Shown here: in pieces, positions 31,973-45,093 of the stretch
Position numbering within the stretch: the stretch's first letter is position 1
How the letters are laid out: each line of letters opens with the position of its first letter
DNA from: an uncultured Candidatus Saccharibacteria bacterium
GTDB taxonomy: Bacteria > Patescibacteriota > Saccharimonadia > Saccharimonadales > JAGQNJ01
Direction of reading: 5' to 3'
Length of the DNA: 64,000 nucleotides
Assembly: GCA_964565615.1 (NCBI GenBank)
Contig: CAZMFO010000003.1
Span: 2,197 to 66,196, forward strand
Notes under the pieces: generated by a model
Seen by the model: the letters and a program-made list of their open reading frames with translations, nothing else
Databases searched by the model: none
What the model was told of the DNA's origin: nothing
Position numbers and translations under genes: made by a program

Positions 31973-32753
31973 GAACTTTCTCCTCCGAAAGATGTTTTAT
32001 GCGTTCTTTGGTATCGCTCATCAGTGCATCCATCGTCTTTTGAGTATCACCACTTGATATATCTTCGACCACTCCATCTTGAATCTTCAGTAAATGATCA
32101 GCTAACGAAATATACTCTAAATTATGCGTCACCAATATAATAGTACGCCTAAACTCAATCTGGCAATTTAAAAGTAAATTCATTATTGTATCCCCATTTT
32201 CTGTGTCTAAGTTCCCTGTAGGTTCATCGGCAATAATGAACAGTGGATCATTTGCTAATGCCCTAGCCATACCAATTCTTTGTTGCTCACCACCAGACAA
32301 GAATAAGGGTGACTTCTTGGCATAGCTCGCCATATTGACACGCTCAAGCGCAATCATCGCTAATCTTGAGGCTTTTGACCTATTGTATCCCAAAAAATAT
32401 AAAGGTACTGATATGTTTTCAACGACATTTAAACTTTTTATCCAATGATTTGTTTGGTGCATGAACCCAACCCTATTGGCCCTAAAATGCGCTAGCTCGT
32501 CAGGTCTAAGTGCATAAATGTCTCTGCCTTCGATAACAACATTTCCAGTACTCGGTGCTTGTAGCCCCGCCAGGACATTAAGCAAAGTTGACTTTCCGCT
32601 ACCAGATGGACCAAAAATTATCGTAAAACTATTGGCTTTTATGGAGAAATTAACAGTTTTAAGCGCTGGTATAGTCTCGTCTCCAATCTTAAAAGACTGT
32701 TGGATGTTCTCTACATTTATTACGGCTGGTTGATCATTTTCTATCCCACCCAT
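31959..32753 (-). CDS. ABC transporter ATP-binding protein (MacB/LolD-like)
   Basis: Walker A GPSGSGKST, signature LSGGEQQR, Walker B LFIIADEPTGNLD. Confidence 0.92.
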   Translation of the reverse strand: MGGIENDQPAVINVENIQQSFKIGDETIPALKTVNFSIKANSFTIIFGPSGSGKSTLLNVLAGLQAPSTGNVVIEGRDIYALRPDELAHFRANRVGFMHQTNHWIKSLNVVENISVPLYFLGYNRSKASRLAMIALERVNMASYAKKSPLFLSGGEQQRIGMARALANDPLFIIADEPTGNLDTENGDTIMNLLLNCQIEFRRTIILVTHNLEYISLADHLLKIQDGVVEDISSGDTQKTMDALMSDTKERIKHLSEEKVHANK

Positions 32754-35700
32754 TAAAATCCAAACACCTTTCTTAGCGTATTAAGCACAATTGTCATGAC
32801 GCTATCTGATGCACGCCCAATAATGGCAGACTTTGATTCACCATGACCCATATTATCACTACTGTCCTTCGAAATAGGTTGAATACTATAGATCCTAGAT
32901 GTAGGCAAGTCTGAAACAATCACAATATGCTCAGATGACATAGCTGTGTCCTCTGATGTTTTATTATTAAAAGTCTTGGTTTCTGACCCCTCAGTATATG
33001 CTACTTGACTGGTAGCTGGCTCATCAGTCTTCCATGACACGACTATTTGTCCGCGGGCTTCTGCGCCAGCGCCCTTAATAGATGTTTCGATAGATATATC
33101 ACTAATTTTTGGAGGCCTTGTATCTAACGCAGTCTTAAAGTTTACCCTATCAGACTCTGCTAGATTTCCATCACCATCACGGCTCTGTGCAGACAGCGAA
33201 TAATTACTGTTGTCTTGCAAACCTTTAATAACTATTTCGTGATCTGTCTTCATTTGGTTGTCAGATATGTTGCTTGTACTGCCATTCTCAATTCCATAAA
33301 TTACTGCTGAAGTTGTGGGCACATTTGTTTTCCAGCTTACTTTTTGAGTACTTGTTGGCTGGTCCGGCATTGGCTGGAAGCGTAAATCAGAAATTCTTGG
33401 TCTAGGCGGGGTAGTGAAAGAGTAAATATCACCAGGATATTGACCACCTTCGGAATCTAATAAAATAATTCTGTAATAATACTTAACACCGTCCTCCAGA
33501 TCGGGCAACTCTACTGTATATACTGACTCTTCTGTTGAGGTATTTAATTCAACTCTACCGCCAAAGGACTCTGATTTACCATAATCAATACTTGCTTTTG
33601 TTGCATCCTTAGAAGTAAATTGAACACTCGCGCTATTTAATCGTACTTTCGTTGTCTTTACGTCTTTAGCCACTGGTGCCGGTTTAGTCGTAAAGCTCAT
33701 TTCTTGGTAGACTCCAGTATTACCGTCTTCATCAGTCCAACGGGCTACAAAGTAGTATGTAGTACCGGCATCCAGGTTATCCATGTCTAGAATATGGCTA
33801 GTAACCTGGGACGAATTACTGATTTCACTAGCAAAATATTGTCCACGAGACTTGCCGATCGCCACCTTAGAGTCACTTTCACGATTCGTAGACCATTGAA
33901 TACGTGCTTTTTTAGTTGTAACATTCAAAATCTCAGGCTTCGCTACAACATCTGCCGGTTCCGTAAACTTACCGGTCGGATACATATTGACTATGGTACT
34001 GTAAGCCCCACAATTATTAGCACTATCGCAAGCACGTATCTTGTAATAGTATCGCATCTGAGGAATTCCACCATCTACAAAGCTTAACCCTGCAGTTGTA
34101 GCAATTTGGCCGAAATTCTGGTTATCTATTGATCGATAAATCTTATAGTTTGACACACCGGAGCCCGTGCTCTCTGGTGGCGCCCAAGACAAAGCTATCT
34201 TCCAGTTTGATGTTGATTTTGTTGAAATATCAGCAATCTCTATATTCGTCGGCATCCCTGGCGCAGCAGTATTCGCCGTAAAGGTTGCGCTAGCATATGT
34301 AGCATAGTTTATGTTACCCGCTTCGTCCTTGGCTACTACATAAAAAGTATTTTCACCGGGCTGTGTCGCGTATGGTCCAGACGGAATAGTTGTCACTCCT
34401 GCATTAGTAAAATTACATGTATTTACGGTAGGCAGAGTATTAACTGTGTAGCAATATTCCAAAGCCGAGCTTGGCCCAACAAAAGTATCAGGCTGATTCC
34501 AACTAAAAGCGAAAGAGTTTGTAGTATTTGTGGCTGGAGTAACGGTAGCATTTCGAGGCGAAGAAGGCGCAGATGTATTGATTTTGATTACTGCAGTAGC
34601 ATAAGAGGTCGAGAAGTTGCCTGCCTGATCAACGGTTCTAAAGTAGACAATATTATTACCTTCAATTAAATTTGGATAATCATAGGTTGCATCTGTACGA
34701 TAACTACCATTATTTGGCAAAATATCGCTTACGTCCTGGTTGCCATTATGACTAGCCCCAAACCATGTACCGTCACCAATCTTATATTGCAAACCAAGAA
34801 CACCTGAATGGCTGTCACTCACTGAACCATTACCACTAGTATTCCAAGTCAAACTGACATCGCGCGATGGTAAAAATTGTGATGGGGCAGACACAAAACC
34901 AAGGGTAGCAGGGGCAGTATTATCAAAACGAAAGGTAAACTGTTCAGATGACCCAGTGAAGACATTATCCGAATTATCTATTGCCTTGATATTTAAATAA
35001 TATGGATTAGTTGATGATACTAAACCACTACCAACCAAGCTCGCTACCGACATATCAAGATACGTAGAATCAACTGTAAAGGCGCATTTGTTATCGGTTT
35101 GGATCGGACTGGTTCCGAGAACTCCTTTGTCAGTTTCAGGATCTGCATTTTGATCTTGTCCTAGGTATAAACAATACCCTTTAATGCCAGTAGCACCTGG
35201 ATTGCTATCGTCTGAACCAGCACCCCACGAAAAGTATGGTGTGGTGGTATTTACCCAATCATTACTGGCGATTACCTGGCCACCCTGGGATTTACGCATC
35301 TCAATATCACGCGCATTGTCTGTTGGTGGATTGACGTCTGGGTTAATCGTGACTGTAATACCGTTTACCGCTATAGCCTGAGAGCCATTGCTCGCCAAAT
35401 ATGCTCGCCATTTGAACTGCCGTGTACCGATCGGCAACGAACCAATGTGATCATTCACCTCCTGAGCGGTATTTCGATCACTTGACCCGGCAGACACCCA
35501 TGCAGACCCATTCCAGAATAGCCACGTTGTACCATTGTCGGTCGATATTTGATAATAAATTTCCCCACCATTCTTGGTAGCATCTTCTTCGAAGGTTTTC
35601 CAGCTGGCAACCGCCGGTGGATTAAATGCTTGATTGGATTCAATAGTTGGTAAGTCCGTAGCGTAACGTTTGCCGATGAAGCTCGCTCCACCGTTTGTGG

Positions 35701-38700
35701 TTCCAGCAATCATGCTATTTGAGTCTTTAATCTTCATGGAGTTAAATTCTTGACTAGCCAAGTCTGGTTTTGTGCCTTTATCTATAATCTCACCTACGGA
35801 CGGTGTGTTGATGTTGATACCGTCCAACCGCACTATCCTACCGTCATCAGGGGTGCCCATATTAGAAACTTGATAATATGATCCCGAAGAAGTGCCGACA
35901 CCGCCATGACGAATTTGAGTTGGTACTAACTCAGGAGCGCTTGTATTGTAAAGCTGTAACTCCGACACAGCTAGCTGTTGCGTATTGGTAGGCATATAAG
36001 GATAGCGAATTCTAATATAGCGAGTCGTGGTGAGCGAGAAGGCGACATCGTGATTGGCCCTATAATAACCATCGGCCACAAATGAAGGATAGGAGTAATT
36101 GCTAACAGATGACAGCTGGCTAACTGTGCCCGTAGAAAAATGGGATTGATAACTCTTCATCTCCTTCACGCCAAATGCCACAGAGTTATTTACCATAGAA
36201 GAAACTTTGATGCGATATGCTTTAGCCGTCGTAGTATTAAACGTTGTAAGCCTATTGAGTTGAGTATTATTCGTAACATTTTCAAGTTGTGCTACATTTC
36301 CAGTCTCGAACATACTTGAGTAGGCTGCAAAGTTATTGACTCTCGGCGCTGCATTGGGATTATAGGTCTCCGTAACCATTATTCTGATATAACGAGCAGT
36401 TATATCGTTATCAAAAACAATACGACTACCAGCGACCATAGCATTTGTAATAGTTTTAGCGGTCGTCCAGTTCGTATTGTCGCTACTATAGTCAATAGTA
36501 TAGTTTTTTGGAGCTCTAGCTAGTTCTCCACAATACCACTCAACACCCCTCATTACGACGCTACTTCCGTAATCGATAGCTAAGTATTGAGGCACACTCA
36601 CGCTCGGTGCAGTATAGGCAACCCAACCCGTTCCCATTGTGCTATCGATAGACTTATCAGCATTGTAAGACGAGTTATTGTTGTAATACGATGAGGCAGT
36701 TGCGCTTACCGGCGTAAGCTTGTTTGTTGTTATATCGCTCTTTTCTATTACATAATCTTTGGGGATTCTAGACGGATCATAAAAATGGAAATCTATAGCG
36801 CTAAGTTCCGTAGGTGAAGCAAAAGCTTGCTCTAGAATTTGAGGACCAGCATTTTGAGCGAATATAGGGTAAGATAAGAATCCCGTGGTATTGTCATTAT
36901 CTGTCGCACGACCGGGACCATAAGTGGCTTCATTATTGTTAGTGCCTTGATTGGTTGACATCGTTGATGAAGGCGAAAGATTATTGCTTGTGCCCTTAGT
37001 GCTCGTTTCTACGACATAATTTTTTGGTGCGTAAGTCGCCGAAGATGCAAAGTTTTGTCGTAAGAAATTGAATGATTTATTCGAACCCAAATCAATTTCT
37101 AGCCATTCGCTGTTCTCGCCTCCTGACCCCAGGTAATTATAGCCACTAGAATGGAATAGACTATCTATGTTACCATCTATGGCATTTGTGACAGCTTGTT
37201 GCACTGGGTCAAAACGCGCTTTGATGGTTGAACCCGAGATCAGGTTAGATCCCCTAGTCGAATTGGTGAATGCGTTGATCGTACTATTGGTCGGGGTTGT
37301 GCGATTCTCTTGAATAATTACCAAGCCCTCATCGGTGCCTACATAAATAGTATTATCGCCAACATTTACTGTAGAGGTATTCTCGGACACATCTATAGTA
37401 TTAAAGGTTCGTGGAAACGCCATGCTTGGTCCATGTTGTGTAGAGCTAAACGGTTGTCCAAAGTCTATTGAGGCTGTGTATAGTGACCAATCCGTCGTTT
37501 GGTTTACGGCATTGTCTTTTACGAAGACTGAATTTGGTGCAGTCCAAGATACACTGCTATTTCCTCTGTATATTGCATACAGAGCACCGTCAGATGTTAG
37601 CTTTGAGTCGACAATAACATAGTTATTTCCCGCTGGTAATAGGTTGGTTTTAACAATGCTGACGGCGCCCTGTTCGTCTTTAATAATCTGTGCTGTCTTG
37701 TATGTTGTTGCGACTAAGTACACTTTTCCTGAGATGTATTTAGAATCAATGCTCCTAATTGCTTGGTCAGCCAGCGCCGGAGATGTAGAAGTAGAATACC
37801 TCACGGTTCCAAGGGCTGTGTTGTTGGTCATGGCGCTGACTTGCCATCTATATATTCCGCCGTTTTTGCCAGCATATAAATAACCGTTTTCGACAGTAAT
37901 GGTCGGGAACCCGCCTCCAGCCGTTACGTAGGCGGTGCGTTGCCAAGTGTCTTGGCGAATTACATCGATCCCAAGGTCCGTCGATACAAAATAGTAGGTG
38001 TTGTCGGCAGCTACATCCAAAACATTGTTCGATTGCAACTGCCCATCTGCCACACTAAAGTTCTTTACCGCATCTCGCAGCGATAAACGTAGTTTATTGT
38101 CATTTGGTTCAACTTTAGAATTATCATAGCTATAGTTACTAGGTGTCGTAAAGTTCCATGTAAAAGAGGTTTCTATAGCATACGAACGTGCACTGATCCC
38201 AAGCATTATCAAACATGCCACTATCATTGATCCGACAATTGATTTATTGCGATAGCCGGAATTATTCCACTTACCATACCATGAAAACCGAGTCATAAAA
38301 TATCGGTGTAATTTATAAATAACTTTTTTTGTATATATTAAAACAGCTCCAATAAAACGCCCACAATAAGAGTTGTTAAGTTTCGATATTATTGATGCTA
38401 GAGATTTATACATACCTGAATTCTTAAGAATATTTACTACTCTTTTCAAATACATGTGAACATTGCCAAAAATAATACTCCAATATTTTGACAACAGAAC
38501 AAAAGTCTTAGATTTTCGTATCCTTGATAACAATAAAACACAAAATCTTCTTAATCTATCTAAAAGTTTATGAACAATCTTTGCTATTCGTACAACAAAA
38601 AAACTAAGAAATTTAAGAAAAATTAATGCCGTATTAACAAAAATTCTCAAGCCTTTAACTATCTTGACTAAAACAAGTCTAGCTCTGTTCTTAATTTTTA

Positions 38701-38764
38701 TGCTATATTGATTAATAAACAAATTACACCTCGCGAATAATAAGTCGTGACTTAACTGAATCAT
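32753..38764 (-). CDS. giant surface protein: N-terminal basic extension + signal anchor, propeller-like region, multiple F5/8-type-C (discoidin) domains, multiple fibronectin-III/PAP-N-like domains
   Basis: 2003-aa uninterrupted ORF. Discoidin-like segments (NAIDGNIDS...EWLEIDLG; DKSIDSTMGTGW...YLAIDYG). FN3 (YKIYRSIDNQNF...YYYKIRACD). Four repeats of the type ARIQWSTNRESDSKV...TTYYF. An alternative Met at 38296 lies just before the signal anchor. Confidence 0.85.
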   Translation of the reverse strand: MIQLSHDLLFARCNLFINQYSIKIKNRARLVLVKIVKGLRIFVNTALIFLKFLSFFVVRIAKIVHKLLDRLRRFCVLLLSRIRKSKTFVLLSKYWSIIFGNVHMYLKRVVNILKNSGMYKSLASIISKLNNSYCGRFIGAVLIYTKKVIYKLHRYFMTRFSWYGKWNNSGYRNKSIVGSMIVACLIMLGISARSYAIETSFTWNFTTPSNYSYDNSKVEPNDNKLRLSLRDAVKNFSVADGQLQSNNVLDVAADNTYYFVSTDLGIDVIRQDTWQRTAYVTAGGGFPTITVENGYLYAGKNGGIYRWQVSAMTNNTALGTVRYSTSTSPALADQAIRSIDSKYISGKVYLVATTYKTAQIIKDEQGAVSIVKTNLLPAGNNYVIVDSKLTSDGALYAIYRGNSSVSWTAPNSVFVKDNAVNQTTDWSLYTASIDFGQPFSSTQHGPSMAFPRTFNTIDVSENTSTVNVGDNTIYVGTDEGLVIIQENRTTPTNSTINAFTNSTRGSNLISGSTIKARFDPVQQAVTNAIDGNIDSLFHSSGYNYLGSGGENSEWLEIDLGSNKSFNFLRQNFASSATYAPKNYVVETSTKGTSNNLSPSSTMSTNQGTNNNEATYGPGRATDNDNTTGFLSYPIFAQNAGPQILEQAFASPTELSAIDFHFYDPSRIPKDYVIEKSDITTNKLTPVSATASSYYNNNSSYNADKSIDSTMGTGWVAYTAPSVSVPQYLAIDYGSSVVMRGVEWYCGELARAPKNYTIDYSSDNTNWTTAKTITNAMVAGSRIVFDNDITARYIRIMVTETYNPNAAPRVNNFAAYSSMFETGNVAQLENVTNNTQLNRLTTFNTTTAKAYRIKVSSMVNNSVAFGVKEMKSYQSHFSTGTVSQLSSVSNYSYPSFVADGYYRANHDVAFSLTTTRYIRIRYPYMPTNTQQLAVSELQLYNTSAPELVPTQIRHGGVGTSSGSYYQVSNMGTPDDGRIVRLDGININTPSVGEIIDKGTKPDLASQEFNSMKIKDSNSMIAGTTNGGASFIGKRYATDLPTIESNQAFNPPAVASWKTFEEDATKNGGEIYYQISTDNGTTWLFWNGSAWVSAGSSDRNTAQEVNDHIGSLPIGTRQFKWRAYLASNGSQAIAVNGITVTINPDVNPPTDNARDIEMRKSQGGQVIASNDWVNTTTPYFSWGAGSDDSNPGATGIKGYCLYLGQDQNADPETDKGVLGTSPIQTDNKCAFTVDSTYLDMSVASLVGSGLVSSTNPYYLNIKAIDNSDNVFTGSSEQFTFRFDNTAPATLGFVSAPSQFLPSRDVSLTWNTSGNGSVSDSHSGVLGLQYKIGDGTWFGASHNGNQDVSDILPNNGSYRTDATYDYPNLIEGNNIVYFRTVDQAGNFSTSYATAVIKINTSAPSSPRNATVTPATNTTNSFAFSWNQPDTFVGPSSALEYCYTVNTLPTVNTCNFTNAGVTTIPSGPYATQPGENTFYVVAKDEAGNINYATYASATFTANTAAPGMPTNIEIADISTKSTSNWKIALSWAPPESTGSGVSNYKIYRSIDNQNFGQIATTAGLSFVDGGIPQMRYYYKIRACDSANNCGAYSTIVNMYPTGKFTEPADVVAKPEILNVTTKKARIQWSTNRESDSKVAIGKSRGQYFASEISNSSQVTSHILDMDNLDAGTTYYFVARWTDEDGNTGVYQEMSFTTKPAPVAKDVKTTKVRLNSASVQFTSKDATKASIDYGKSESFGGRVELNTSTEESVYTVELPDLEDGVKYYYRIILLDSEGGQYPGDIYSFTTPPRPRISDLRFQPMPDQPTSTQKVSWKTNVPTTSAVIYGIENGSTSNISDNQMKTDHEIVIKGLQDNSNYSLSAQSRDGDGNLAESDRVNFKTALDTRPPKISDISIETSIKGAGAEARGQIVVSWKTDEPATSQVAYTEGSETKTFNNKTSEDTAMSSEHIVIVSDLPTSRIYSIQPISKDSSDNMGHGESKSAIIGRASDSVMTIVLNTLRKVFGF

Positions 38765-38889
38765 TCAATCAAATCAAGCTTATGTTTATTTTAACAAACT
38801 CTACTTTACTCAGCAATAGTGATCAATGTATCAGAACATAATTTTTGTGTCATATCATTGCGACGTTTTTGCACAAATGTCATCTATTA

Positions 38890-38918
38890 TTGCGAAAGCA
38901 AGGCGTTTTGTTTATAAT
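38890..38918 (+). promoter_or_regulatory. sigma70-type promoter candidate for tRNA-Asn
   Basis: TTGCGA (38890-38895), 17-nt spacer, TATAAT (38913-38918), about 48 nt upstream of the tRNA. Confidence 0.4.
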
Positions 38919-38966
38919 ACTCTCTCGTACTACCTTAGTTATACTTTGGTAGAAGTTAATTAATAA

Positions 38967-39041
38967 TCCGGGGTAGCTCAGCGGTAGAGCGGGTGGCTGT
39001 TAACCACTAGGTCGTAGGTTCGAATCCTATCCCCGGAGCCA
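38967..39041 (+). tRNA. tRNA-Asn (anticodon GTT), CCA encoded
   Basis: Hand-folded cloverleaf: acceptor TCCGGGG/CCCCGGA, D arm GCTC-AGCGGTA-GAGC, anticodon arm GGTGG-CTGTTAA-CCACT, T arm GTAGG-TTCGAAT-CCTAT, discriminator G, CCA. Confidence 0.92.
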
Positions 39042-40572
39042 AATTAGGACTTTTTAGGAATTGGTCGCCCATTCGGGCGGCTTTTTCTTTGGTTGCGCGG
39101 AGCGCAAGCCAGATGTTTTCTTGGGGGGAATTGGAATTAGGGCGCGGCAGGAGCCGCGCTTGTTTTCTAGATAAAAAGAGGTTCAATCCGTCAATTTCAG
39201 CAAAAGCAGATTTTATGGCTATCGGCTCGGCGTTTTCTGCTATTTTCTTGAGAGAAACAGCCATTTTTATCCACTGGCGCATAGGTTCAACCCACGCATT
39301 AGCGGCAAGCGTCAGCTTGCTAATTTGCTCGTCCAGTGACTTCTTTTCACTCATCAGCTCGGCTTGTTTAGCTTTGTAAGTTGGCTGGTCAATATCTTGG
39401 TCTAGGTAACTATCGAGAAGTCGCTGTAACTTGCCCTGTAAATTACGCACTTTATCTTGTGCCTGGGCTATAAATACGCCAGTAGTTCGCTCGGCTGTTT
39501 TTTCGTCCTCGTCCAGCATTTTATTAAGCGTGGTTGCCCACACACTCGGCAGGGCGTAGCTCTGCAATATGTCAGATAACTGCGCCACAAGTTGCGGTTC
39601 GGTTACGGCAGGCTCTATGCATTTCATTATCTTGCTTTTGCGCGTGCAGCGGTAATAGGTGTATTCGTGTATATTACCGTTCTTCTGGTGTTTTACTTTC
39701 TTTTCGGCAGTAATCGCCATATTGCACGCACCGCAGGTCAGTAAACCGCACAAGGCTTGTGGTGCATTTGCGCCTTTTCGCGTGTGTCCGCGTTGCTCCA
39801 ATACGGACTGCACCGTGTCAAACAGTTTTTTGGACATAATCGGCGCATGCTTGCCCTCGTAGACTTCGCCAGCATATCTAAAATGTCCGTAATAAAACGG
39901 ATTGGTCAGCATATATTTGATTTGGTCTTTTTTGAGGGGCAAGCCACCGCTGGTTTTTATGCTATTATCTGCGAAATAGTCAGCAATTTCCTGTAAACCT
40001 TTGTTGCCTTTGCTGTACAGCTCAAATGCAGATACAACCAGCGGCGCACGCCGTTTATCTATAACAATAGTGCGGGTACGTACATCATTTATGTAGCCAA
40101 GCGGTGCAAGTCCAGGCATTTCGCCCCGTCTGACTTTCTGGCGCAAACCACGCTTGGTGTTTTCGGACAAATTGTCTACATAGTATTTTGACTGACCAAA
40201 CGCAATAGACAGCATAAACTTTCCCTGCGATGTATTCTCAAACCAAAATGTCGGGAACTTTAATGACTGCAAATGCGTTTGGTCTAGCAAATACACAATT
40301 TGCCCGCCATCTACGCTGTTTCTAGCTAGTCTGTCAGGGTGCCAAGCAACAATGCCGCTGGCTTCGCCAGCTTCAATGCGTTTTAGCATTGATCCGAACT
40401 TCGGACGACCTGGTATTTTAGCGGTGCGTTTTTCAATAATAGTGTCTACGATTTGCAAGCCGTTATCTCTAGCGTATTTCCGAAGTTCGGCAATTTGCGC
40501 CTCAATGGACAAAACCTGTTTGTCCTCTACATCCGTACTCTTGCGAGCGTATAAAAAGTATTTTTCTTGCAT
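39007..40572 (-). CDS. large serine recombinase (integrase)
   Basis: N-terminal resolvase domain (YARKSTDVEDKQVLSIEAQ with the catalytic Ser, HPDRLARN), recombinase domain, zinc ribbon (CGLLTCGACN...YYRCTRK) and coiled-coil. Strong RBS (AGGGGG). The last ~55 codons run through repeat X and 35 nt of the tRNA. Confidence 0.9.
   Translation of the reverse strand: MQEKYFLYARKSTDVEDKQVLSIEAQIAELRKYARDNGLQIVDTIIEKRTAKIPGRPKFGSMLKRIEAGEASGIVAWHPDRLARNSVDGGQIVYLLDQTHLQSLKFPTFWFENTSQGKFMLSIAFGQSKYYVDNLSENTKRGLRQKVRRGEMPGLAPLGYINDVRTRTIVIDKRRAPLVVSAFELYSKGNKGLQEIADYFADNSIKTSGGLPLKKDQIKYMLTNPFYYGHFRYAGEVYEGKHAPIMSKKLFDTVQSVLEQRGHTRKGANAPQALCGLLTCGACNMAITAEKKVKHQKNGNIHEYTYYRCTRKSKIMKCIEPAVTEPQLVAQLSDILQSYALPSVWATTLNKMLDEDEKTAERTTGVFIAQAQDKVRNLQGKLQRLLDSYLDQDIDQPTYKAKQAELMSEKKSLDEQISKLTLAANAWVEPMRQWIKMAVSLKKIAENAEPIAIKSAFAEIDGLNLFLSRKQARLLPRPNSNSPQENIWLALRATKEKAARMGDQFLKSPNLAPGIGFEPTT
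39036..39166 (+). repeat. inverted repeat X, left arm (131 bp, perfect)
   Basis: Checked base by base: exact reverse complement of 40733-40863. Confidence 0.95.
39064..39090 (+). terminator. element-borne rho-independent terminator directly after tRNA-Asn
   Basis: GTCGCCC-ATTC-GGGCGGC stem-loop followed by TTTTTCTTT. A second hairpin, GCGCGGC-AGGA-GCCGCGC + TTGTTTT, lies at 39142-39166. Confidence 0.55.
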
Positions 40573-40732
40573 AGTTTTACCCCCTAAAACTTAAATGACC
40601 GTCCTGGTGCAACCAACCTAGAAAGTCTAGATTGTCCAAGACGGCCATTTAAGCCCTCAAAAAATACAAATAGACTTTCACTGGTTGGTTGCTCTTTCAT
40701 TATACCAAGAAAAACCGCCTTTGGCGGTCTAA

Positions 40733-40863
40733 AAAACAAGCGCGGCTCCTGCCGCGCCCTAATTCCAATTCCCCCCAAGAAAACATCTGGCTTGCGCTCC
40801 GCGCAACCAAAGAAAAAGCCGCCCGAATGGGCGACCAATTCCTAAAAAGTCCTAATTTGGCTC
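40733..40863 (-). repeat. inverted repeat X, right arm (131 bp, perfect)
   Basis: Exact reverse complement of 39036-39166. Ends in TTGGCTC (the inverted core). Confidence 0.95.
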
Positions 40864-41034
40864 AATTTTACAACGAAGCTCGAACCTATTTCCAGCGCAA
40901 AGTGTAACCCAAGCCTCGCCGCCTGTTTTGGCAAAGCCAAAACGCGCCCCGCCAGAAAAAACCAGCCTTTGCATTTTTGGATTTTCCCCCGCCGAATTTC
41001 TTTTTTAATTTGGAAAAGGTTGGTTTTTCTGTCG
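40857..41034 (+). repeat. inverted repeat Y, left arm (178 bp, perfect)
   Basis: Exact reverse complement of 42745-42922. Begins with TTGGCTC, shared with the X right arm. Confidence 0.95.
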
Positions 41035-41048
41035 AGTGCGCTCGGCGT

Positions 41049-41570
41049 TTACGCCGACATTTGGGCTTTTGTTGCTTTCAATAACGCAAGGTCGCGTTTT
41101 TGAATAAACTTGCCCTCGTAATTTGTAGGCTGGTCTTGCTCCAGTAGTGAAATGGCTGTGTCTATATTATCAGTCCAAACTATTGAAAATTGCTCTCGCA
41201 ATTCTTTCTCGGTAAAGTCTGGTTCTCCTTTTTCTCCAATTTGCTTGGCAATAAAGCAGTAAGAAGTTTGTTTGAGTTCAAATTGATCTCTGTATTCAAT
41301 AATCTCGCCAACTTCGCCAGTAACTTCTGCTTTACAGCCAATTTCTTCAAGCAATTCGCGTTCTAATGCAGTTGGTACATCTTCGCCATCATCAATACCG
41401 CCACCAGGCAATTTGTGATAATCGTGAAGCCCGACACGCAAGAGCGCAATTTTTCCTGCACTATCTGATACAACTGCTCTTGCTGCTTCACGATTTCTAA
41501 AATTGCCAGTTTCTATAGCTGGTGCGTCAGGGTTTATGTCCTGTTCGTGAATTGTGAGTATGTTTTTCAT
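41049..41570 (-). CDS. NUDIX hydrolase
   Basis: Nudix box GGGIDDGEDVPTALERELLEEIGC. ATGA overlap with the upstream HIT gene. Confidence 0.85.
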   Translation of the reverse strand: MKNILTIHEQDINPDAPAIETGNFRNREAARAVVSDSAGKIALLRVGLHDYHKLPGGGIDDGEDVPTALERELLEEIGCKAEVTGEVGEIIEYRDQFELKQTSYCFIAKQIGEKGEPDFTEKELREQFSIVWTDNIDTAISLLEQDQPTNYEGKFIQKRDLALLKATKAQMSA

Positions 41571-41989
41571 AGACTAGTAAGTTTCTGCTTAATTTTATTA
41601 AATTCGTCCTGCGTTAATTCAATAGCCTCCAGTTCTGTTTTGAGTGGCCAGTCTTTATCGTTGAACTCTTTTCCACCTATAACAACGGGTCTTGAATATC
41701 GCGGCACAAAATGGAAATGAACATTTGGGTCTTTCATCATCAGTGCCAAATAATTAAACTTTTCTGCGCCAAAGGCGTTGCGTAGCAACTCTTCTGCGTC
41801 TTTTGCGACAGTGGCAAACTCTGCCCACTCGTCAGATGTCAAACCGCCCAGATCTGTAGCCTCTGATTTTGCGGCAAGCACTAGGCTTCCGATAGTTATC
41901 TGTTTTGGTCTCAGCAACACAACCCAATGCGCGTATTCTCTCATGAGTGTGCCTGGGTAGCCGAAAGTCTTAATAGTGATGTTCATCAT
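41567..41989 (-). CDS. HIT-family nucleotide hydrolase/transferase-like protein
   Basis: NVHFHFVPRY aligns to the histidine-triad HxHxHxx-PR motif with the first His replaced by Asn. About 140 aa, typical of the family. Confidence 0.65.
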   Translation of the reverse strand: MMNITIKTFGYPGTLMREYAHWVVLLRPKQITIGSLVLAAKSEATDLGGLTSDEWAEFATVAKDAEELLRNAFGAEKFNYLALMMKDPNVHFHFVPRYSRPVVIGGKEFNDKDWPLKTELEAIELTQDEFNKIKQKLTSL

Positions 41990-42639
41990 ATTTCCTTTTT
42001 AATAATTTCTGCCAACGCTTGCGCGAGTGCAGGGTGCGACTGTTTATCAAAATGTATGCCGTCAAGTCCTGCCCTCGCAACTGTGCTTGCGTCAAAGTAA
42101 AGTGAGCTTGTTTCGCTGGCTACTCGTTCAATCTCTTTGCCAAGTTGCCTAGACTTTTCAGCAGATTGCTTATCATAAATGCCATCATAATAATCCGTAA
42201 ACTTCGGCGCGGTGTCATCTACAAAAATAGGACTAACAAGCAAAACTCTGGCATTTGGAGTATTTGCTTTTACTTCGTCAATAAACAGTTTCAGTGTGTC
42301 GGCGATTTCGCCGACAGGTCTTTCATACTGTAATTTTAAGTCGTTTGTGCCAAGCATAACAATAACTAGGTCTAGGGGCGAGTGGCTAATAAGGCAGGGG
42401 TTAAAATACGACAGCCCGTTGCGTGATTGTTTCGCAGGGTTGTAGTGTTCAAGATTTGTTGTCCTACCGCCCAAGCCTTCCTCAATAATGTAATAGTTGT
42501 TACCCAACAGCTCTTGCAGTTTACCTGTCCAGCGAACATCGCTGGCATATCTGCCAGCAAAGTTTTTATCATCATTTTGACCCCAAGTATTACTGTCGCC
42601 ATAGCACAGTACAACTTTGGCTTGCGGGTTCGTATTCAT
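41986..42639 (-). CDS. SGNH/GDSL hydrolase (arylesterase/lipase-like)
   Basis: Block [13 protein letters not shown], block II GLGGRTT, block III MLGTNDL, block V DGIHF. The ATG at 42639 is preferred; the tracked ORF extends to 42729. Confidence 0.85.
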
Positions 42640-42744
42640 AAGGCTTATTATAACAGATTTCCATCTGTTTAATGTGTCGCTTGCGACACATAGCAACTGT
42701 GTTGCTCCGAGCCACGCCGCCTCTGCCATTTATGGCAGACGAAC

Positions 42745-42922
42745 CGACAGAAAAACCAACCTTTTCCAAATTAAAAAAGAAATTCGGCGGGGGAAAATCC
42801 AAAAATGCAAAGGCTGGTTTTTTCTGGCGGGGCGCGTTTTGGCTTTGCCAAAACAGGCGGCGAGGCTTGGGTTACACTTTGCGCTGGAAATAGGTTCGAG
42901 CTTCGTTGTAAAATTGAGCCAA
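42745..42922 (-). repeat. inverted repeat Y, right arm (178 bp, perfect)
   Basis: Exact reverse complement of 40857-41034. Ends in GAGCCAA (the right direct repeat). Confidence 0.95.
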
Positions 42923-42931
42923 GTGCAAATC

Positions 42932-43228
42932 ATGGCTAAAAGACCGAGTTCCTATGACCGGTCTTTTTTGTTTGTTCTACCTCTGTTAAATTATCTCCAA
43001 AATAACCAAGACCGTGTCGCATTATGGCGGCTCAGCGGACATTTTTATGACCGGGTTCCGAGACCGCACCAAAGACCGTTACCTCCATTGCGAAGTCCTG
43101 TCAACGACCTCGAAATTCGTGAATTACTGCGTGAGGCATTGACCGACAAAATCGACGACCGCGAAGTATTTATTAAAGGTATCAAGCAATCATATTATTA
43201 CGAAGAGACTGAAAGCTATAAAGATTAG
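42932..43228 (+). CDS. doubtful small ORF (98 aa) downstream of the element
   Basis: The only Met lies inside the terminator hairpin. The 3' two-thirds look codon-like ([25 protein letters not shown]). It could be a gene remnant. Confidence 0.2.
42938..42969 (+). terminator. rho-independent terminator, probable original tRNA-Asn terminator displaced by the insertion
   Basis: AAAAGACCG-(11 nt)-CGGTCTTTT stem followed by TTTTG, 16 nt after the right GAGCCAA repeat. Confidence 0.7.
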
Positions 43229-43395
43229 CACCATCAAATTTTACGGGCAATATAAACAAGCCGACCTGTCAATGTTTAGGCTACTGGACTTTCAATAAGT
43301 TTATAGTATCTAAGTATCTGCCCTATCTACTTACCAAAAATCACCAACAAATGCTATTACTTTGTGCAACGAAACACTCAATAGGTTGCCAATAA

Positions 43396-45093
43396 TTGTA
43401 TACTGTTATTATGGGCAGAAAAAATCCTACAAAAGACCGATACTCTTTAACAAAAATGATTGTTGGCTTTGGGCGGTCATTGAATTATCTAGGGCTCGTT
43501 TCTGCTGTTATATTTTTTTGTTTTTCGGTTTTGCCATCTTTACTGCCAAGACCATGGATTTATCAAGGGCTAATCAGTGGAATAAGCATAGCAGTTGGTT
43601 ACTGCTTTGGCGTTATGTTAAGCTCGGCACTTCGTTGGACTTTAGAATACGAGCCACCCCAACCCATAAAACAATGGGCATGGAAGCTACTTATCTATAC
43701 TGGACCGATAACATTTATCATATATCTGTATCTGGGATCTGTTTGGCAACGAGAGGTACATCTGCTCGTCGGCCTAACTAACGGGACTCATAGATATCTA
43801 TTTAGAGTCTTAGTTGTAACCACATTAGTGAGTTTTCTGCTACTGCTTATGGGGCGATTAATAATGAGACTTAACCGGCTAATAATACATAACCTAGACA
43901 AAGTATTGCCCAGGAGAGCAAGTATTGGTCTTGGTTGTCTAGTAGTTGCGATTGCTCTTTGGTGGGTATTAAGTGGAGTGTTCTTTAATTTTTTTGTAAC
44001 CCAAGCTAATAAAAAACATTCTATTCGTAATAACTCAACTCCTAAAGGAGTTCTTCGGCCAGCAGACAACTTTAGGTCGGGGAGCAAAGAATCTCTAGTT
44101 TCATGGGATAGTTTGGGGTTTCAAGGGAAGAAGTTTGTTGCTAGTGGGCCGACCAAGCAAGAGCTCGAGACTTTTACAGGTCAAACCCCAAAAAATCCGA
44201 TCCGTGCTTATGTTGGGCTAAATAGCGCCGATAATGCCACCGATAGAGCCAATCTAGCTGTTGCCGAACTTAAACGAACTAACGCTTTTAGTAGAAAGAT
44301 CCTGATTTTAGCCACCCCGACAGGGACAGGATGGCTAGAACCACAATCTGTTGATACAATCGAATACCTATACAATGGCGATAGTGCCATAGTAGCTCAA
44401 CAGTACTCGTATCTACCAAGCTGGATATCGTTTTTGGTAGATAAAGAAAATGCCCGTAGTGCTGGTCGGGCATTATACGACGCTGTTTATGCAGAATGGT
44501 CAAAACTCCCAAAAGACTCTCGTCCAAAACTTATAATCTATGGGTTGAGTCTAGGATCATTTGGTAGCCAGTCAGCTTTTAGCGGAGTAAACGATATTAA
44601 GCTATCTGTTGACGGGGCATTATTTGTCGGAACACCAAGCGATACCGAACTATGGCGCGAAATAACTCATCAAAGAGATGCAGGCTCTCCAGAACGGTTA
44701 CCCACATATAAAAACGGCAAAACCGTGCGTTTTGCCTCAAACAAATCAGACATAGACAAAAATCAAGAAGTCTGGGAATACCCAAGAGTGCTTTATTTGC
44801 AACACGCCTCTGATCCTGTAGTTTGGTTTGATTTTGATTTGGTTTACTCAAAACCAGATTGGCTAAACGAACAACGGGGGAGTGATGTTTCGCCAACAAT
44901 GCGATGGTACCCATTTGTAACCTTTATTCAAGTTGGAATAGACCAGTTTTTCGGTGTAACAATGCCTAATGGCCGAGGGCATAACTATCCAGACAGTATC
45001 GTCAACGCTTGGGTGTCAGTAACTAATCCAGAAGAGTGGAGCGAGTCTAAAACATTGAAGCTCCAACAAATTATCAATAACTACAAAAAATAG
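43396..45093 (+). CDS. membrane-anchored alpha/beta hydrolase (Abhydrolase_9-like)
   Basis: N-terminal ~190 aa with 4-5 TM helices, then a hydrolase domain with the nucleophile elbow IIYGLSLGSFGS. Confidence 0.65.
   Translation: MYTVIMGRKNPTKDRYSLTKMIVGFGRSLNYLGLVSAVIFFCFSVLPSLLPRPWIYQGLISGISIAVGYCFGVMLSSALRWTLEYEPPQPIKQWAWKLLIYTGPITFIIYLYLGSVWQREVHLLVGLTNGTHRYLFRVLVVTTLVSFLLLLMGRLIMRLNRLIIHNLDKVLPRRASIGLGCLVVAIALWWVLSGVFFNFFVTQANKKHSIRNNSTPKGVLRPADNFRSGSKESLVSWDSLGFQGKKFVASGPTKQELETFTGQTPKNPIRAYVGLNSADNATDRANLAVAELKRTNAFSRKILILATPTGTGWLEPQSVDTIEYLYNGDSAIVAQQYSYLPSWISFLVDKENARSAGRALYDAVYAEWSKLPKDSRPKLIIYGLSLGSFGSQSAFSGVNDIKLSVDGALFVGTPSDTELWREITHQRDAGSPERLPTYKNGKTVRFASNKSDIDKNQEVWEYPRVLYLQHASDPVVWFDFDLVYSKPDWLNEQRGSDVSPTMRWYPFVTFIQVGIDQFFGVTMPNGRGHNYPDSIVNAWVSVTNPEEWSESKTLKLQQIINNYKK

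Follow-up and report, generated by a model that had tools for sequence, protein, structure and literature searches.

Two described systems come closest to the locus reported here. The yeast 2-micron plasmid has two long inverted repeats that hold its recombination target sites and split it into two unique segments. The circle predicted for our element shares this topology, although the enzyme is a tyrosine recombinase in the plasmid and a serine recombinase here. As in the Hin system, where hin lies inside a segment flanked by inverted repeats, our recombinase gene is enclosed by such repeats, but Hin and Gin are small invertases whereas the protein in question is, by its domains, of the large serine integrase type. 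To our knowledge, canonical large serine recombinases (LSRs) do not recombine attP with attP, attL or attR. The locus lies in a 64,000-nt window, the whole stretch of DNA analyzed, to which all coordinates refer. It holds an LSR integrative element with an inverted internal attP, which is real and apparently undescribed: the earlier note knew of no bacterial integrative element of such organization, and our literature searches likewise found no description of a comparable one.

ARAGORN identified a tRNA-Asn (GTT) at 38967–39041 (plus strand; Rfam tRNA RF00005, 71.6 bits), which forms the left arm (B) of attB. Its last bases, GA-G-CCA, fall within the core GAGCCAA at 39036–39042 (plus strand; tRNA positions 71–76 plus one A), the crossover region of attL. 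The core recurs at 42916–42922 (plus strand), the crossover region of attR, with a core-to-core spacing of 3,880 bp, and its reverse complement TTGGCTC lies at 40857–40863 (minus strand). A repeat search returned two pairs of inverted arms, X (39036–39171 and 40728–40863; 136 nt, 99% identical, 131 nt of these perfect) and Y (40857–41034 and 42745–42922; 178 nt, 100% identical). The perfect part of X (X at 39036–39166, plus strand; its inverted copy X' at 40733–40863, minus strand) flanks the LSR gene, and Y (minus strand) with Y' (plus strand) flanks three cargo genes, leaving unique segments of 1,566 bp (39167–40732) and 1,710 bp (41035–42744). The inner arms X' and Y abut on the inverted core, which they have in common and which is the center of an inverted attP block (40733–41034). 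A repeated GAGCCAA 7-mer is by itself expected by chance. X and Y are not: these inverted repeats, 131 and 178 bp long and perfect, meet at an inverted core, and the layout recurs in unrelated assemblies. The four sequence statements of the earlier note, on the core copies, on X, on Y and on the abutting inner arms, were confirmed base for base by repeat search, ARAGORN and the sequence itself. Beyond the right core, a terminator-like hairpin and T-run (AAAGACCG...CGGTCTTTTTT; about 42938–42969, plus strand) is presumably the original tRNA-Asn terminator and the B' side of attB; a simple terminator scan overlooked this hairpin (loop >8 nt), which was recognized in the sequence.

The recombinase gene (39007–40572, minus strand, 521 aa) matches Pfam Resolvase (1.2e-22), Recombinase (3.8e-16) and Zn_ribbon_recom (1.9e-6), with distant matches to CcrB, XisF, SprA and the A118 integrase. 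To the first reading we add that its frame crosses X as well as the core and enters the antisense strand of the tRNA, giving the tail PGIGFEPTT. The right arm of attP (P', that is, X) consists of the last ~45 codons of the gene (minus strand), and the C-terminal peptide encoded there (...KKARLLPRPxSxSPQENIWLALRAxKEKAAxxGDxFxKSPxLA) is kept in homologs of 67–93% identity. On its plus strand, X also offers the tRNA a pair of intrinsic terminators (39063–39082 and 39140–39161). This corrects the first reading, as X, besides being an att arm, carries coding sequence and two terminators. X' accordingly repeats the recombinase 3' end in truncated form and supplies P' of the internal attP (P' profile match at 40809–40860). 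Upstream of the gene and on its strand (minus) are a conserved hairpin in the 5' leader, just ahead of the ribosome-binding site (CTTAAATGRCCGYC...GRCGGYCATTTAAG; 40586–40657; also present in L092 and L179, and kept in the family alignment), a likely promoter with the extended -10 box TGGTATAAT (40699–40707), and a third intrinsic terminator in unique sequence (40712–40730; terminator scan and family alignment). In the alignment, TTGGTA(A/T)AAT directly follows this third terminator in some 25 members of the family. The third terminator and the pair in X' are together predicted to insulate the putative recombinase promoter.

In Y', on the other side, a long-range stem and next a hairpin precede the P arm AATAGGTTCGAGCTTCGTTGTAAAATT, which ends in the core (family alignment and covariation test). 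Y repeats the P arm (P-arm profile match at 40857–40908) and the conserved structured inner region in inverted form. The P arm, the left arm of attP, imitates a tRNA T-loop, but shifted outward from the crossover by 4 bp: in all scorable elements its GGTTC motif is 25 nt from the C74 equivalent, versus 21 nt in tRNAs. The core fits tRNA positions 72–73 (GAGCCA for Asn/Gln, CACCA for Leu/Gly/Phe/Val, TACCA for Arg and CTCCA for Lys/Thr), and the minimal core common to the whole family is CAC (N72-N73-C74), seen in L063, L067 and L069. The LSR integrated the element where tRNA-Asn ends, at the discriminator/CCA. Precise insertion after CCA follows from a comparison at tRNA-Arg, where two empty sites (L086 and L028) run from tRNA-Arg...TACCA directly into a terminator and the same downstream gene, while L009 has a 4.5-kb element between the tRNA and that terminator and gene. 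As a rule, B' in family members is a terminator with a stem that begins in the CCA/A-rich core. The assignments of the earlier note, with attL as tRNA-core-X, attR as Y'-core-terminator and an inverted attP inside, are upheld by the empty tRNA-Arg sites and by the conserved family architecture. The search for empty sites that it proposed succeeded for tRNA-Arg in related genomes; for the window's own tRNA-Asn locus, neither an empty site nor an isomer was found, the nearest flank homolog being 66% identical and without synteny. Both the recombinase module and the cargo module have near-perfect inverted repeats at their ends, which terminate in the core, and the junction of the two is thus an exact inverted attP.

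The window element is one integrated member of a large, apparently undescribed family of mobile LSR elements that extends across the Patescibacteria (ultra-small CPR bacteria). Considering CPR/Patescibacteria loci from many assemblies, the X inverted repeat is present at 80/87 eligible loci (median identity 99.1%) and the abutting Y inverted repeat at 34/47 (median identity 99.8%), with an arm overlap of 3–12 bp; related elements therefore do keep the double inverted architecture, as had been asked. The recombinase is followed by an antisense tRNA at 105 of 119 loci, representing 17 tRNA identities.

Three cargo genes, all on the minus strand, occupy the Y-flanked segment. They encode a NUDIX hydrolase (41049–41570, 173 aa; PF00293, 3e-12), a 140-aa protein with a histidine-triad-like motif, HFHFVPR, and no Pfam match (41567–41989), and a GDSL/SGNH hydrolase (41986–42642, 218 aa from an internal ATG; PF13472, 4.8e-20). 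HIT-domain cargo was seen in two other family elements. The 68 cargo ORFs of 31 other elements cover 64 Pfam families. Cargo lies on the recombinase strand in 15 cases and on the opposite strand in 13; L110 and L159 have the same cargo, inverted. The recombinase module also occurs both ways, so the segment inversion isomers proposed in the earlier note exist. At tRNA-Ser, a 99.94% identical recombinase module stands in opposite orientations in L175/L176 and L179, while the host flanks of L175 and L179 are only 89% identical. The orientation is standard in L179 but flipped in L175 and L177, where the gene is intact; the two X arms of L175 match at 100%. In another pair, recombinases P0243 and P0244 are identical over 513 aa and then part at the core, each continuing into a different antisense-tRNA tail. 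Judged by these identities, both cases point to recent mobility. Integration through either att copy, another proposal of the note, or a flip after integration would account for the opposite orientations at tRNA-Ser. Both orientations of each segment occur, as four isomers would require, but not with equal frequency: among the best 120 homologs, 89 recombinase tails read into a tRNA and 17 into a P arm, and in about 85–90% of the family the recombinase converges on the tRNA (~6–9:1).

The explanation we favor, and hold to be fairly probable though far from settled, is a mobile LSR element of two modules with an inverted internal attP and a 3,880-bp circle as its transfer intermediate. Excision by attL x attR would yield this circle with two inverted 302-bp copies of attP, either of which could recombine with any tRNA whose positions 72–74 match the core; it is in this that we infer the role of the internal copy. 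Recombination between the inverted copies, by RecA or by the recombinase, would flip both segments and keep the arms alike, although flipping by the recombinase would be unorthodox given the canonical rule on attP partners. The arms would act as symmetric insulators, through the terminators in X and the structured region in Y, so that a module should work in either orientation. Equal use of the two attP copies predicts a 1:1 recombinase orientation, and the observed skew counts against this explanation, as do the position of the cargo-exchange breakpoints and the stability of L162–L168 (both described below) and the failure to find an empty site or isomer for the window's own tRNA-Asn. As no candidate for a recombination directionality factor was found, excision is assumed rather than shown. 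L092 and L119, short contigs in which P arms lie 3' of the recombinase, are ambiguous as to a circle.

The same circle could instead be a replicating plasmid whose copy number rises, in the manner of FLP, when its inverted repeats recombine during replication. Its predicted topology matches that of 2-micron exactly, and the conserved, structured, A-rich region of Y could in principle be an origin. However, Pfam searches found no replication, partition or copy-control genes in the window element or among the 68 cargo ORFs of the 31 others, which leaves the FLP-like amplification suggested in the earlier note unsupported. Neither an excised circle nor a circular contig was found among family loci, nearly all copies are chromosomal and adjoin a tRNA, and the enzyme is not a tyrosine recombinase; we consider a plasmid very improbable. 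Just as little credence goes to a domesticated, non-mobile switch, in which the recombinase flips host cassettes near tRNAs for phase variation, like Hin/Gin or a shufflon. Inverted repeats around both segments, a recombinase gene within one of them as with hin, cargo in both orientations and the resemblance of the cargo to housekeeping genes would all suit it. It is largely refuted by the empty sites, by one module shared between hosts with divergent flanks and by one recombinase at different tRNAs (P0243/P0244); the 17 tRNA identities and the large-integrase type of the protein also oppose it. In addition, as the arms are inverted repeats, flipping alters no promoter-gene connection, and the recombinase has its own promoter, predicted to be insulated. 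An assembly artefact, with inverted copies made from collapsed or mis-joined metagenome repeats, is hardly credible and was rejected. In its favor, the repeat lengths (131 and 178 bp) are comparable to those of assembly k-mers and reads, and many family contigs break within the arms, with inverted ends of 55, 99 or 103 nt. Yet the layout recurs in dozens of independent CPR/Patescibacteria assemblies made with various assemblers, one of which (L007, CP064994.1) was submitted as a complete genome, and is kept where the arms differ by a few percent and remain distinguishable (L036, L057, L162). Arm mismatches are identical in seven assemblies, and the arm boundaries are functionally sensible (coding end, terminators, T-loop mimic).

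We regard as unlikely, but deserving of real weight, a chain in which an autonomous recombinase module is joined to a passive cargo cassette, the recombinase acts on the outer junction only and the internal attP is a by-product. The recombinase module would have two P' ends and the cargo module two P ends, half-site polarity would force the recombinase module to lie next to the tRNA and the cargo next to the flank, and RecA-dependent homologous recombination in the conserved arms would change cassettes and orientations, for instance following natural transformation. The natural competence of Saccharibacteria (PMC10633639) counts for this reading. So does the position of the breakpoints at which cargo was swapped between recombinase lineages: they lie 65–90 nt from the core inside Y, where core-proximal Y follows the recombinase lineage and inner Y the cargo, indicating homologous rather than site-specific exchange. 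The chains alternate as predicted, as a tandem array of recombinase module, cargo, recombinase module, cargo in L173 and again in L006. Seven assemblies of one element (L162–L168) agree in orientation and in arm mismatches, so flipping and homogenization are not fast, and flip-flop with selection on attL and attR would alone conserve the inner half-sites. On the other hand, the chain leaves unexplained the origin of exact inverted arms and the constant X boundary (about 130–139 bp in most Saccharibacteria elements), and a near-identical element in opposite orientations in two hosts with flanks differing by 11% has a simpler explanation if either copy can integrate, as in the mobile two-module element that we favor. 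Within 45 nt of the core, the arms carry fewer mismatches than expected, both in Y (13/145 versus 38 expected, p = 1e-7) and in X (63/243 versus 86 expected, p = 1e-3), which also fits a functional internal site.

The element at window positions 39036-42922 is a large serine recombinase (LSR) element inserted at the CCA end of a tRNA gene, and it consists of two modules, each bounded by inverted repeats, that are joined at an inverted attP. The target is tRNA-Asn(GTT) (38967-39041, 71.6 bits in Rfam). The 7-bp core, GAGCCAA, is present at 39036-39042 and 42916-42922, and its reverse complement at 40857-40863. A repeat search identified one inverted repeat of 178 nt with 100% identity (40857-41034 / 42745-42922), whose arms, Y and Y', bracket the cargo genes, and another of 136 nt with 99% identity (39036-39171 / 40728-40863), of which 131 nt are perfect and whose arms, X and X', bracket the recombinase gene. 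The inverted core is the overlap of the two inner arms, which meet in the internal attP (40733-41034). The unique segments are 1,566 and 1,710 bp, and the element measures 3,880 bp from core to core. An earlier note had described the tRNA, the core copies and both inverted repeats, and all of its sequence statements on the element were borne out. The tRNA was the sole match in an Rfam scan of 38000-44000 (E <= 1). On its other side, a 2,003-aa ORF (32753-38764, minus strand) has its 5' end just upstream of tRNA-Asn, and G+C falls to 26–32% over ~38200-38900, between the start region of this ORF and the tRNA.

Every gene of the block is on the minus strand. The recombinase ORF (39007-40572, 521 aa) shows the domain order of an LSR, with an N-terminal Resolvase catalytic domain (PF00239, 1.2e-22), a Recombinase domain (PF07508, 3.8e-16) and a Zn-ribbon (PF13408, 1.9e-6), and the invariant R10-K11-S12, including the serine nucleophile, is seen in the motif YARKSTD (alignment A1). 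The protein is a distant relative of CcrB, XisF, SprA and the A118 integrase. Its ORF passes through X and the core into the antisense strand of the tRNA, ending in ...SPNLA|PGIGFEPTT. As the ORF spans the crossover point (39007-39042; attP-type junction, 40857-40907), the C-terminal tail is set by whatever is joined there and the protein varies with the recombination state: the tail is antisense tRNA (…GFEP…) at attL and the P-arm-encoded …FYNxARTYF… at an attP-type junction. The cargo genes encode a NUDIX hydrolase, a 140-aa protein with a histidine-triad-like motif (HFHFVPR) and a GDSL/SGNH hydrolase.

X carries two intrinsic terminators on the tRNA strand, and X' carries the same two on the recombinase strand, where they are followed by a third terminator (unique sequence), the extended -10 box TGGTATAAT and a leader hairpin (40586-40657). 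This leader (40586-40730, minus strand) is kept family-wide as a terminator, an extended -10 of the form TTGGTA(A/T)AAT without a clear -35, and a long hairpin (CTTAAATGRCCGYC…GRCGGYCATTTAAG) that abuts the ribosome-binding site; it is possibly an autoregulatory or translational control element. A promoter within Y for the cargo or the recombinase was considered and rejected, as Y has no convincing sigma-70-like site and the recombinase has its own promoter behind three terminators.

The recombinase has at least 8,000 relatives at E <= 1e-10 among the matches listed, possibly including distant serine recombinases, and the best 120 of these more than 8,000 are 66–100% identical. Copies are present several times per genome, and the family looks abundant in CPR bacteria. 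The loci that we retrieved (L-numbers below) comprise 79 from species-representative genomes and 80 from metagenomes; nearly all are from Patescibacteria, with Saccharibacteria the majority. The earlier note had proposed checking whether related elements keep the double inverted architecture, and they do: an X inverted repeat surrounds the recombinase in 80 of 87 eligible loci (median identity 99.1%, by self-comparison), and an abutting Y inverted repeat, enclosing a variable segment of 0.9-6 kb, is found in 34 of 47 (median identity 99.8%), with X and Y overlapping by 3-12 bp. The antisense tRNA directly follows the recombinase in 105/119 loci. Seventeen tRNA identities are used, most commonly Leu, Gly, Arg, Gln and Thr. 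The X-encoded peptide is conserved (...KKARLLPRPxSxSPQENIWLALRAxKEKAAxxGDxFxKSPxLA), and beyond it most ORFs run on as ...GFEP..., the antisense translation of the tRNA T-loop.

Repeats of this kind could in principle be created by assembly, and many short contigs indeed stop within the arms, with inverted ends of k-mer length; such ends are expected when an assembly graph contains a real inverted repeat. Recurrence of the layout across assemblies rules out an assembly artefact. It was seen across different assemblers and in L007, from a genome deposited as complete, and it survives a divergence of several percent between the arms. The layout is also shared, down to identical arm mismatches, by seven assemblies of one element (L162-L168).

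Some loci depart from the common form. L019 (4180-4490) and L003 (7530-7842) have the recombinase module and a full Y arm without a partner Y' or attR in reach, and a small ORF alone precedes leuS; these are presumably truncated derivatives. In L059 (7273-13152), the element adjoins a tmRNA gene rather than a tRNA, is flipped, and has its recombinase split into two ORFs.

The limits of the element could be defined by comparing empty and filled sites. In L086 and L028, tRNA-Arg ends in ...TACCA and directly adjoins an A-rich terminator, with a conserved gene downstream. In L009, the CCA is separated from this same terminator and gene by an element of 4.5 kb. Thus, tRNA-core-X is attL and Y'-core-flank is attR, as the earlier note had proposed, and the two share only a short core with the empty attB. 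The empty tRNA sites that it had suggested looking for in relatives were found at tRNA-Arg rather than at tRNA-Asn. No empty site or isomer was found for the window's own locus, whose exact flank protein is unrecorded in the database and whose nearest flank homologues are 66% identical and without synteny; short-core insertion at this tRNA-Asn is inferred from the family.

The Y' end carries a conserved motif, AATAGGTTC(G/T)AGC-n6-GTAnAA-n3-[N72 N73 CCA], in which the P arm mimics the tRNA T-loop. The GGTTC of the P arm is 25 nt from the C74 equivalent, as compared to 21 nt in the real T-loop, so the same motif occurs at different distances from the centre. This offset may reflect the placement of the zinc-ribbon domain. 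In the LI integrase, the zinc-ribbon motif reportedly lies ~5 bp further out in attP half-sites than in attB half-sites, which the ~4 bp offset of the P arm would fit. The minimal common core is CAC (N72-N73-C74; L063, L067 and L069), which places the crossover at the discriminator, and element cores agree with the tRNA class (GAGCCA, CACCA, TACCA or CTCCA). The right flank, B', is usually just the terminator of the tRNA and is not conserved. The stem of this terminator usually starts within the CCA/A-rich core (for example, L029, L042 and L057), so that an inverted core copy (…TTTGG…) follows a few tens of bases downstream; the window version is AGCCA…TGGCT (42917-42936). In L004 (3524-3860), which carries an element, the gene found downstream of tRNA-Arg(CCT) in L009, L086 and L028 is upstream and inverted, possibly owing to a local inversion with one end at the tRNA.

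Comparisons among homologues place the element in a family that is active and spreads horizontally and whose two segments are each found in either orientation. The recombinases P0243 and P0244 are identical over 513 residues and then split, exactly after the core, into two different antisense-tRNA tails, and hence represent the same recombinase at two tRNAs. P0015 and P0241 are identical up to ...SFVLA, after which P0015 continues into the P arm (HFYNQARTYFEENC) and P0241 into antisense tRNA-Ser. The corresponding arrangements were observed at the DNA level. L175 and L176 are of the flipped form (tRNA-Ser(+), X', recombinase(+), X, P arm), and L179 is of the standard form (recombinase(+), X, tRNA-Ser(-)). 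Their recombinase modules differ by 1 base in 1,651, whereas the host flanks are only 89% identical, which indicates a recent move of the element between related hosts, where it occupies the same tRNA with its recombinase module pointing opposite ways. L177 provides a further flipped case, in which the gene is intact. The proposal that the recombinase module never flips was accordingly ruled out, by these flipped loci and by the P-arm-type tails. Among the 120 best homologues, 89 tails are of the tRNA type and 17 of the P-arm type; there is a strong but not absolute bias (about 85–90%) towards a recombinase that converges on the tRNA. The cargo showed the same orientation as the recombinase in 15 cases, the opposite in 13 and a mixed one in 4. 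L110 and L159 have in common a 3.6-kb cargo (87% identical, including the inner 88 nt of Y), and differ in cargo orientation (opposite), recombinase and tRNA. With L175/L176 versus L179 for one segment and L110 versus L159 for the other, the segment-inversion isomers predicted from the window sequence exist in nature. No circular contigs were found, with L092, L119 and L178 too short to tell; L025, at 3,880 bp, is chromosomal and carries tRNA-Cys, and its length is a coincidence.

The cargo is diverse. In 31 other elements, 68 ORFs contained 64 Pfam families, including NUDIX, HIT, inositol monophosphatase, methyltransferases, alanine racemase, dehydrogenases and two restriction-modification systems. 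Neither the cargo of the window element nor that of these 31 (the 68 ORFs) includes replication, partition, transfer or directionality genes. A directionality factor is not recognisable: no accessory gene is conserved, since the recombinase is the sole gene of its module and the cargo of one element bears no relation to that of another.

The Y arm is a conserved family sequence (alignment A2). Compared with L162, a 93% relative, the window element is about 90% identical over the recombinase module and the ~65 nt of Y nearest the core, and has an unrelated inner Y and cargo, which puts exchange points inside Y. The structured part comprises the inner ~130 nt (42745-42880 and 40900-41034 in the window; alignments A2 and A5). 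Its long-range stem (CCRCCAGAAAA.../...TTTTTCTGGYGG) closes off an A-rich loop in which TTCGGCGGGGG is nearly invariant; a hairpin follows. As an automatic consensus fold on a crude alignment was unhelpful, we used per-sequence folds and an explicit structure count. Both stems were tested and covary: 94% of cells are paired, as compared to 43–65% with the partners slid, with compensatory changes in 7 pairs and a score reached by 0/500 shuffles. A second hairpin was seen in single-sequence folds only. The structured part of Y matched no Rfam covariance model (E <= 1), and a small ORF in Y was dismissed because its frame is not conserved in the alignment. Mismatches between arms are depleted within 45 nt of the core, both in Y (13/145 vs 38 expected, p = 1e-7) and in X (63/243 vs 86 expected, p = 1e-3).

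These features suggest how the element probably moves. Recombination of attL with attR would yield a 3.88-kb circle with two inverted attP copies and leave an empty site reading ...CCCCGGAGCCAAGTGCAAATCATGG, and either attP copy could then integrate. Exchange between the inverted attP copies, by the recombinase or by RecA, would flip the segments and keep the arms alike. The arms may also serve as terminators or insulators, in which case a module should work either way round. For the orientation bias, we can only speculate that tRNA transcription silences a converging recombinase gene, or that the nascent enzyme has a cis-preference for the attP overlapping its own 3' end.

Whether the internal attP takes part is less certain. 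It may be a working site of a recombination logic without known counterpart among serine integrases, although we consider this rather unlikely. In such a scheme, the left arm of the donor would mimic the target (the tRNA T-loop) and the right arm of the target would be non-specific, with the consequence that integration products would remain substrates; a single recombinase with no directionality factor could then integrate, excise, stack tandems and flip or swap modules at tRNAs with a matching discriminator. It is also plausible that the elements are simply modular, with the internal attP a by-product and all exchange homologous. The exchange breakpoints inside Y, orientations that are stable over seven assemblies and the natural competence of Saccharibacteria (PMC10633639) all favour such homologous exchange. 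A domesticated phase switch would account for inversion, and is contradicted by the empty sites and the horizontal movement. The FLP-like amplification of an excised circle that the earlier note had raised fared no better: it was suggested by the 2-micron-like layout, and there is no gene (replication or partition) or circular contig in its support. Two further routes were rejected, namely single-strand dumbbell or hairpin integration, which predicts an inverted tRNA duplicate beside X' that was never seen, and recombination of the internal attP in cis with other tRNAs, which predicts a recombinase module between two tRNAs (0/119 loci).

The element works like a serine-integrase island, with the cassette and tandem behaviour of SCC and a predicted circle of 2-micron topology. 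With the LSR systems of phages and ICEs (A118/LI, Bxb1, phiC31, SPbeta SprA), it shares the domains (resolvase, recombinase, zinc ribbon, C-terminal region), att sites with few bases in common, and an attP beside the integrase gene, which in the window element overlaps that gene. Searches of phage and plasmid collections returned no recombinase relative above 28% identity. Unlike those systems, the family targets not a single gene but the generic 3' end that many tRNAs have in common, uses the integrase's own coding sequence as its P' arm, so that recombination switches the ORF tail, keeps a second, inverted attP internally, has no recognised directionality factor gene, and carries 1-6 kb of metabolic or restriction-modification cargo rather than a phage or ICE. 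For SCCmec (CcrAB/CcrC), CcrB is the best NCBIfam similarity of the window recombinase (3.9e-38), but the score against the CcrB equivalog model is 131 bits, far below the cut-off of 900. SCCmec is likewise a small cassette that carries cargo but lacks transfer genes, inserts into the 3' end of a conserved gene, ends in inverted repeats, forms tandem or composite arrays (compare L173) and has no separate directionality factor (none recognised in the window family). It differs in its target, rlmH (orfX) rather than a tRNA 3' end (105/119 loci), and SCC has short terminal inverted repeats and direct repeats, without 130-300-bp module-bracketing repeats or an internal inverted site.

The yeast 2-micron plasmid (FLP/FRT) has two long perfect inverted repeats with the target and two unique segments, a topology predicted for the window circle, and in both cases the two orientation isomers exist in nature. 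However, the window family uses a serine rather than a tyrosine recombinase, is chromosomally integrated and has no origin, partition or amplification genes; its isomers are not equimolar (about 85–90% have one recombinase orientation), and no evidence for circle replication was found. Tycheposons are also small cargo-carrying elements in arrays at tRNAs of streamlined genomes, although they mostly use tyrosine recombinases, duplicate part of the tRNA and often have replication modules, and internal inverted attP sites or module-bracketing inverted repeats are not described for them. A large serine recombinase is present in 27/937 tycheposons (bioRxiv 10.1101/2020.12.28.424599). The recombinase gene within a segment between inverted sites resembles hin, and the conserved structured ends of the interchangeable cassettes bear a loose resemblance to integron attC. 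Integrons, however, use the tyrosine recombinase IntI on folded single-stranded attC, and Hin/Gin are small serine invertases acting with an enhancer and Fis, whereas the window family has a large serine integrase and the whole unit is mobile between tRNAs. Small serine invertases are ~190 aa proteins with a C-terminal helix-turn-helix that act on short (~26 bp) inverted sites with an enhancer; the window protein has 521 aa and integrase-type domains, its arms are 131 and 178 bp, and its unit is mobile. A full-text literature search found no description of the combination of a generic tRNA-end target, a T-loop-mimic arm, an att arm within the enzyme's coding end and a conserved inverted internal attP, which agrees with the earlier note's statement that no such element had been described.

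CPR/Patescibacteria make up a large share of bacterial diversity, with tiny genomes and poorly known mobile elements. As these elements carry metabolic and restriction-modification genes, they are plausibly a main route of gene gain and exchange. Recognition of the universal tRNA T-loop/CCA end is unusual for serine integrases, as are an attP arm formed by the 3' coding end of the gene for the enzyme itself and an exact inverted attP inside. Being compact and having a predictable tRNA target, such an integrase could be developed into a genetic tool for naturally transformable CPR bacteria. If the internal site is active, the family would be a natural case of recombinase-driven cassette flipping and exchange, raising the question of how directionality is set without an accessory factor; a working internal attP would make it a self-shuffling cassette system supplying accessory genes to reduced CPR genomes, and a ready-made generic tRNA-targeting integrase for CPR genetics.

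Half-site polarity also constrains how modules can be chained and accounts for their invariable order. Both ends of the recombinase module are of the right type (P') and both ends of the cargo module of the left type (P), so chains must alternate: tRNA, recombinase module, cargo, (recombinase module, cargo), flank. L173 follows this order as a tandem array (tRNA-Gly, recombinase module 2, cargo, recombinase module 1, etc.), with both recombinases intact and aimed at the tRNA. L006 (3253-5244) has two cargo cassettes in series. Between them is a palindromic unit, CACCAAGAT-terminator hairpin-ATCTTGGTG, and the outer cassette is flanked by inverted copies of this unit; the terminator, with its inverted pseudo-core, seems to behave as a separate module. 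Finally, L003 (9533-12527) has a three-gene insert between the X arm and tRNA-Leu, which L019 (6177-6262) is without. The insert lies between direct copies of a tRNA-Leu 3' fragment (TGGTGCGCGGGGCGGGACTTTGACTCA) and resembles a tRNA-targeting element of another kind, stacked on the first at this site.
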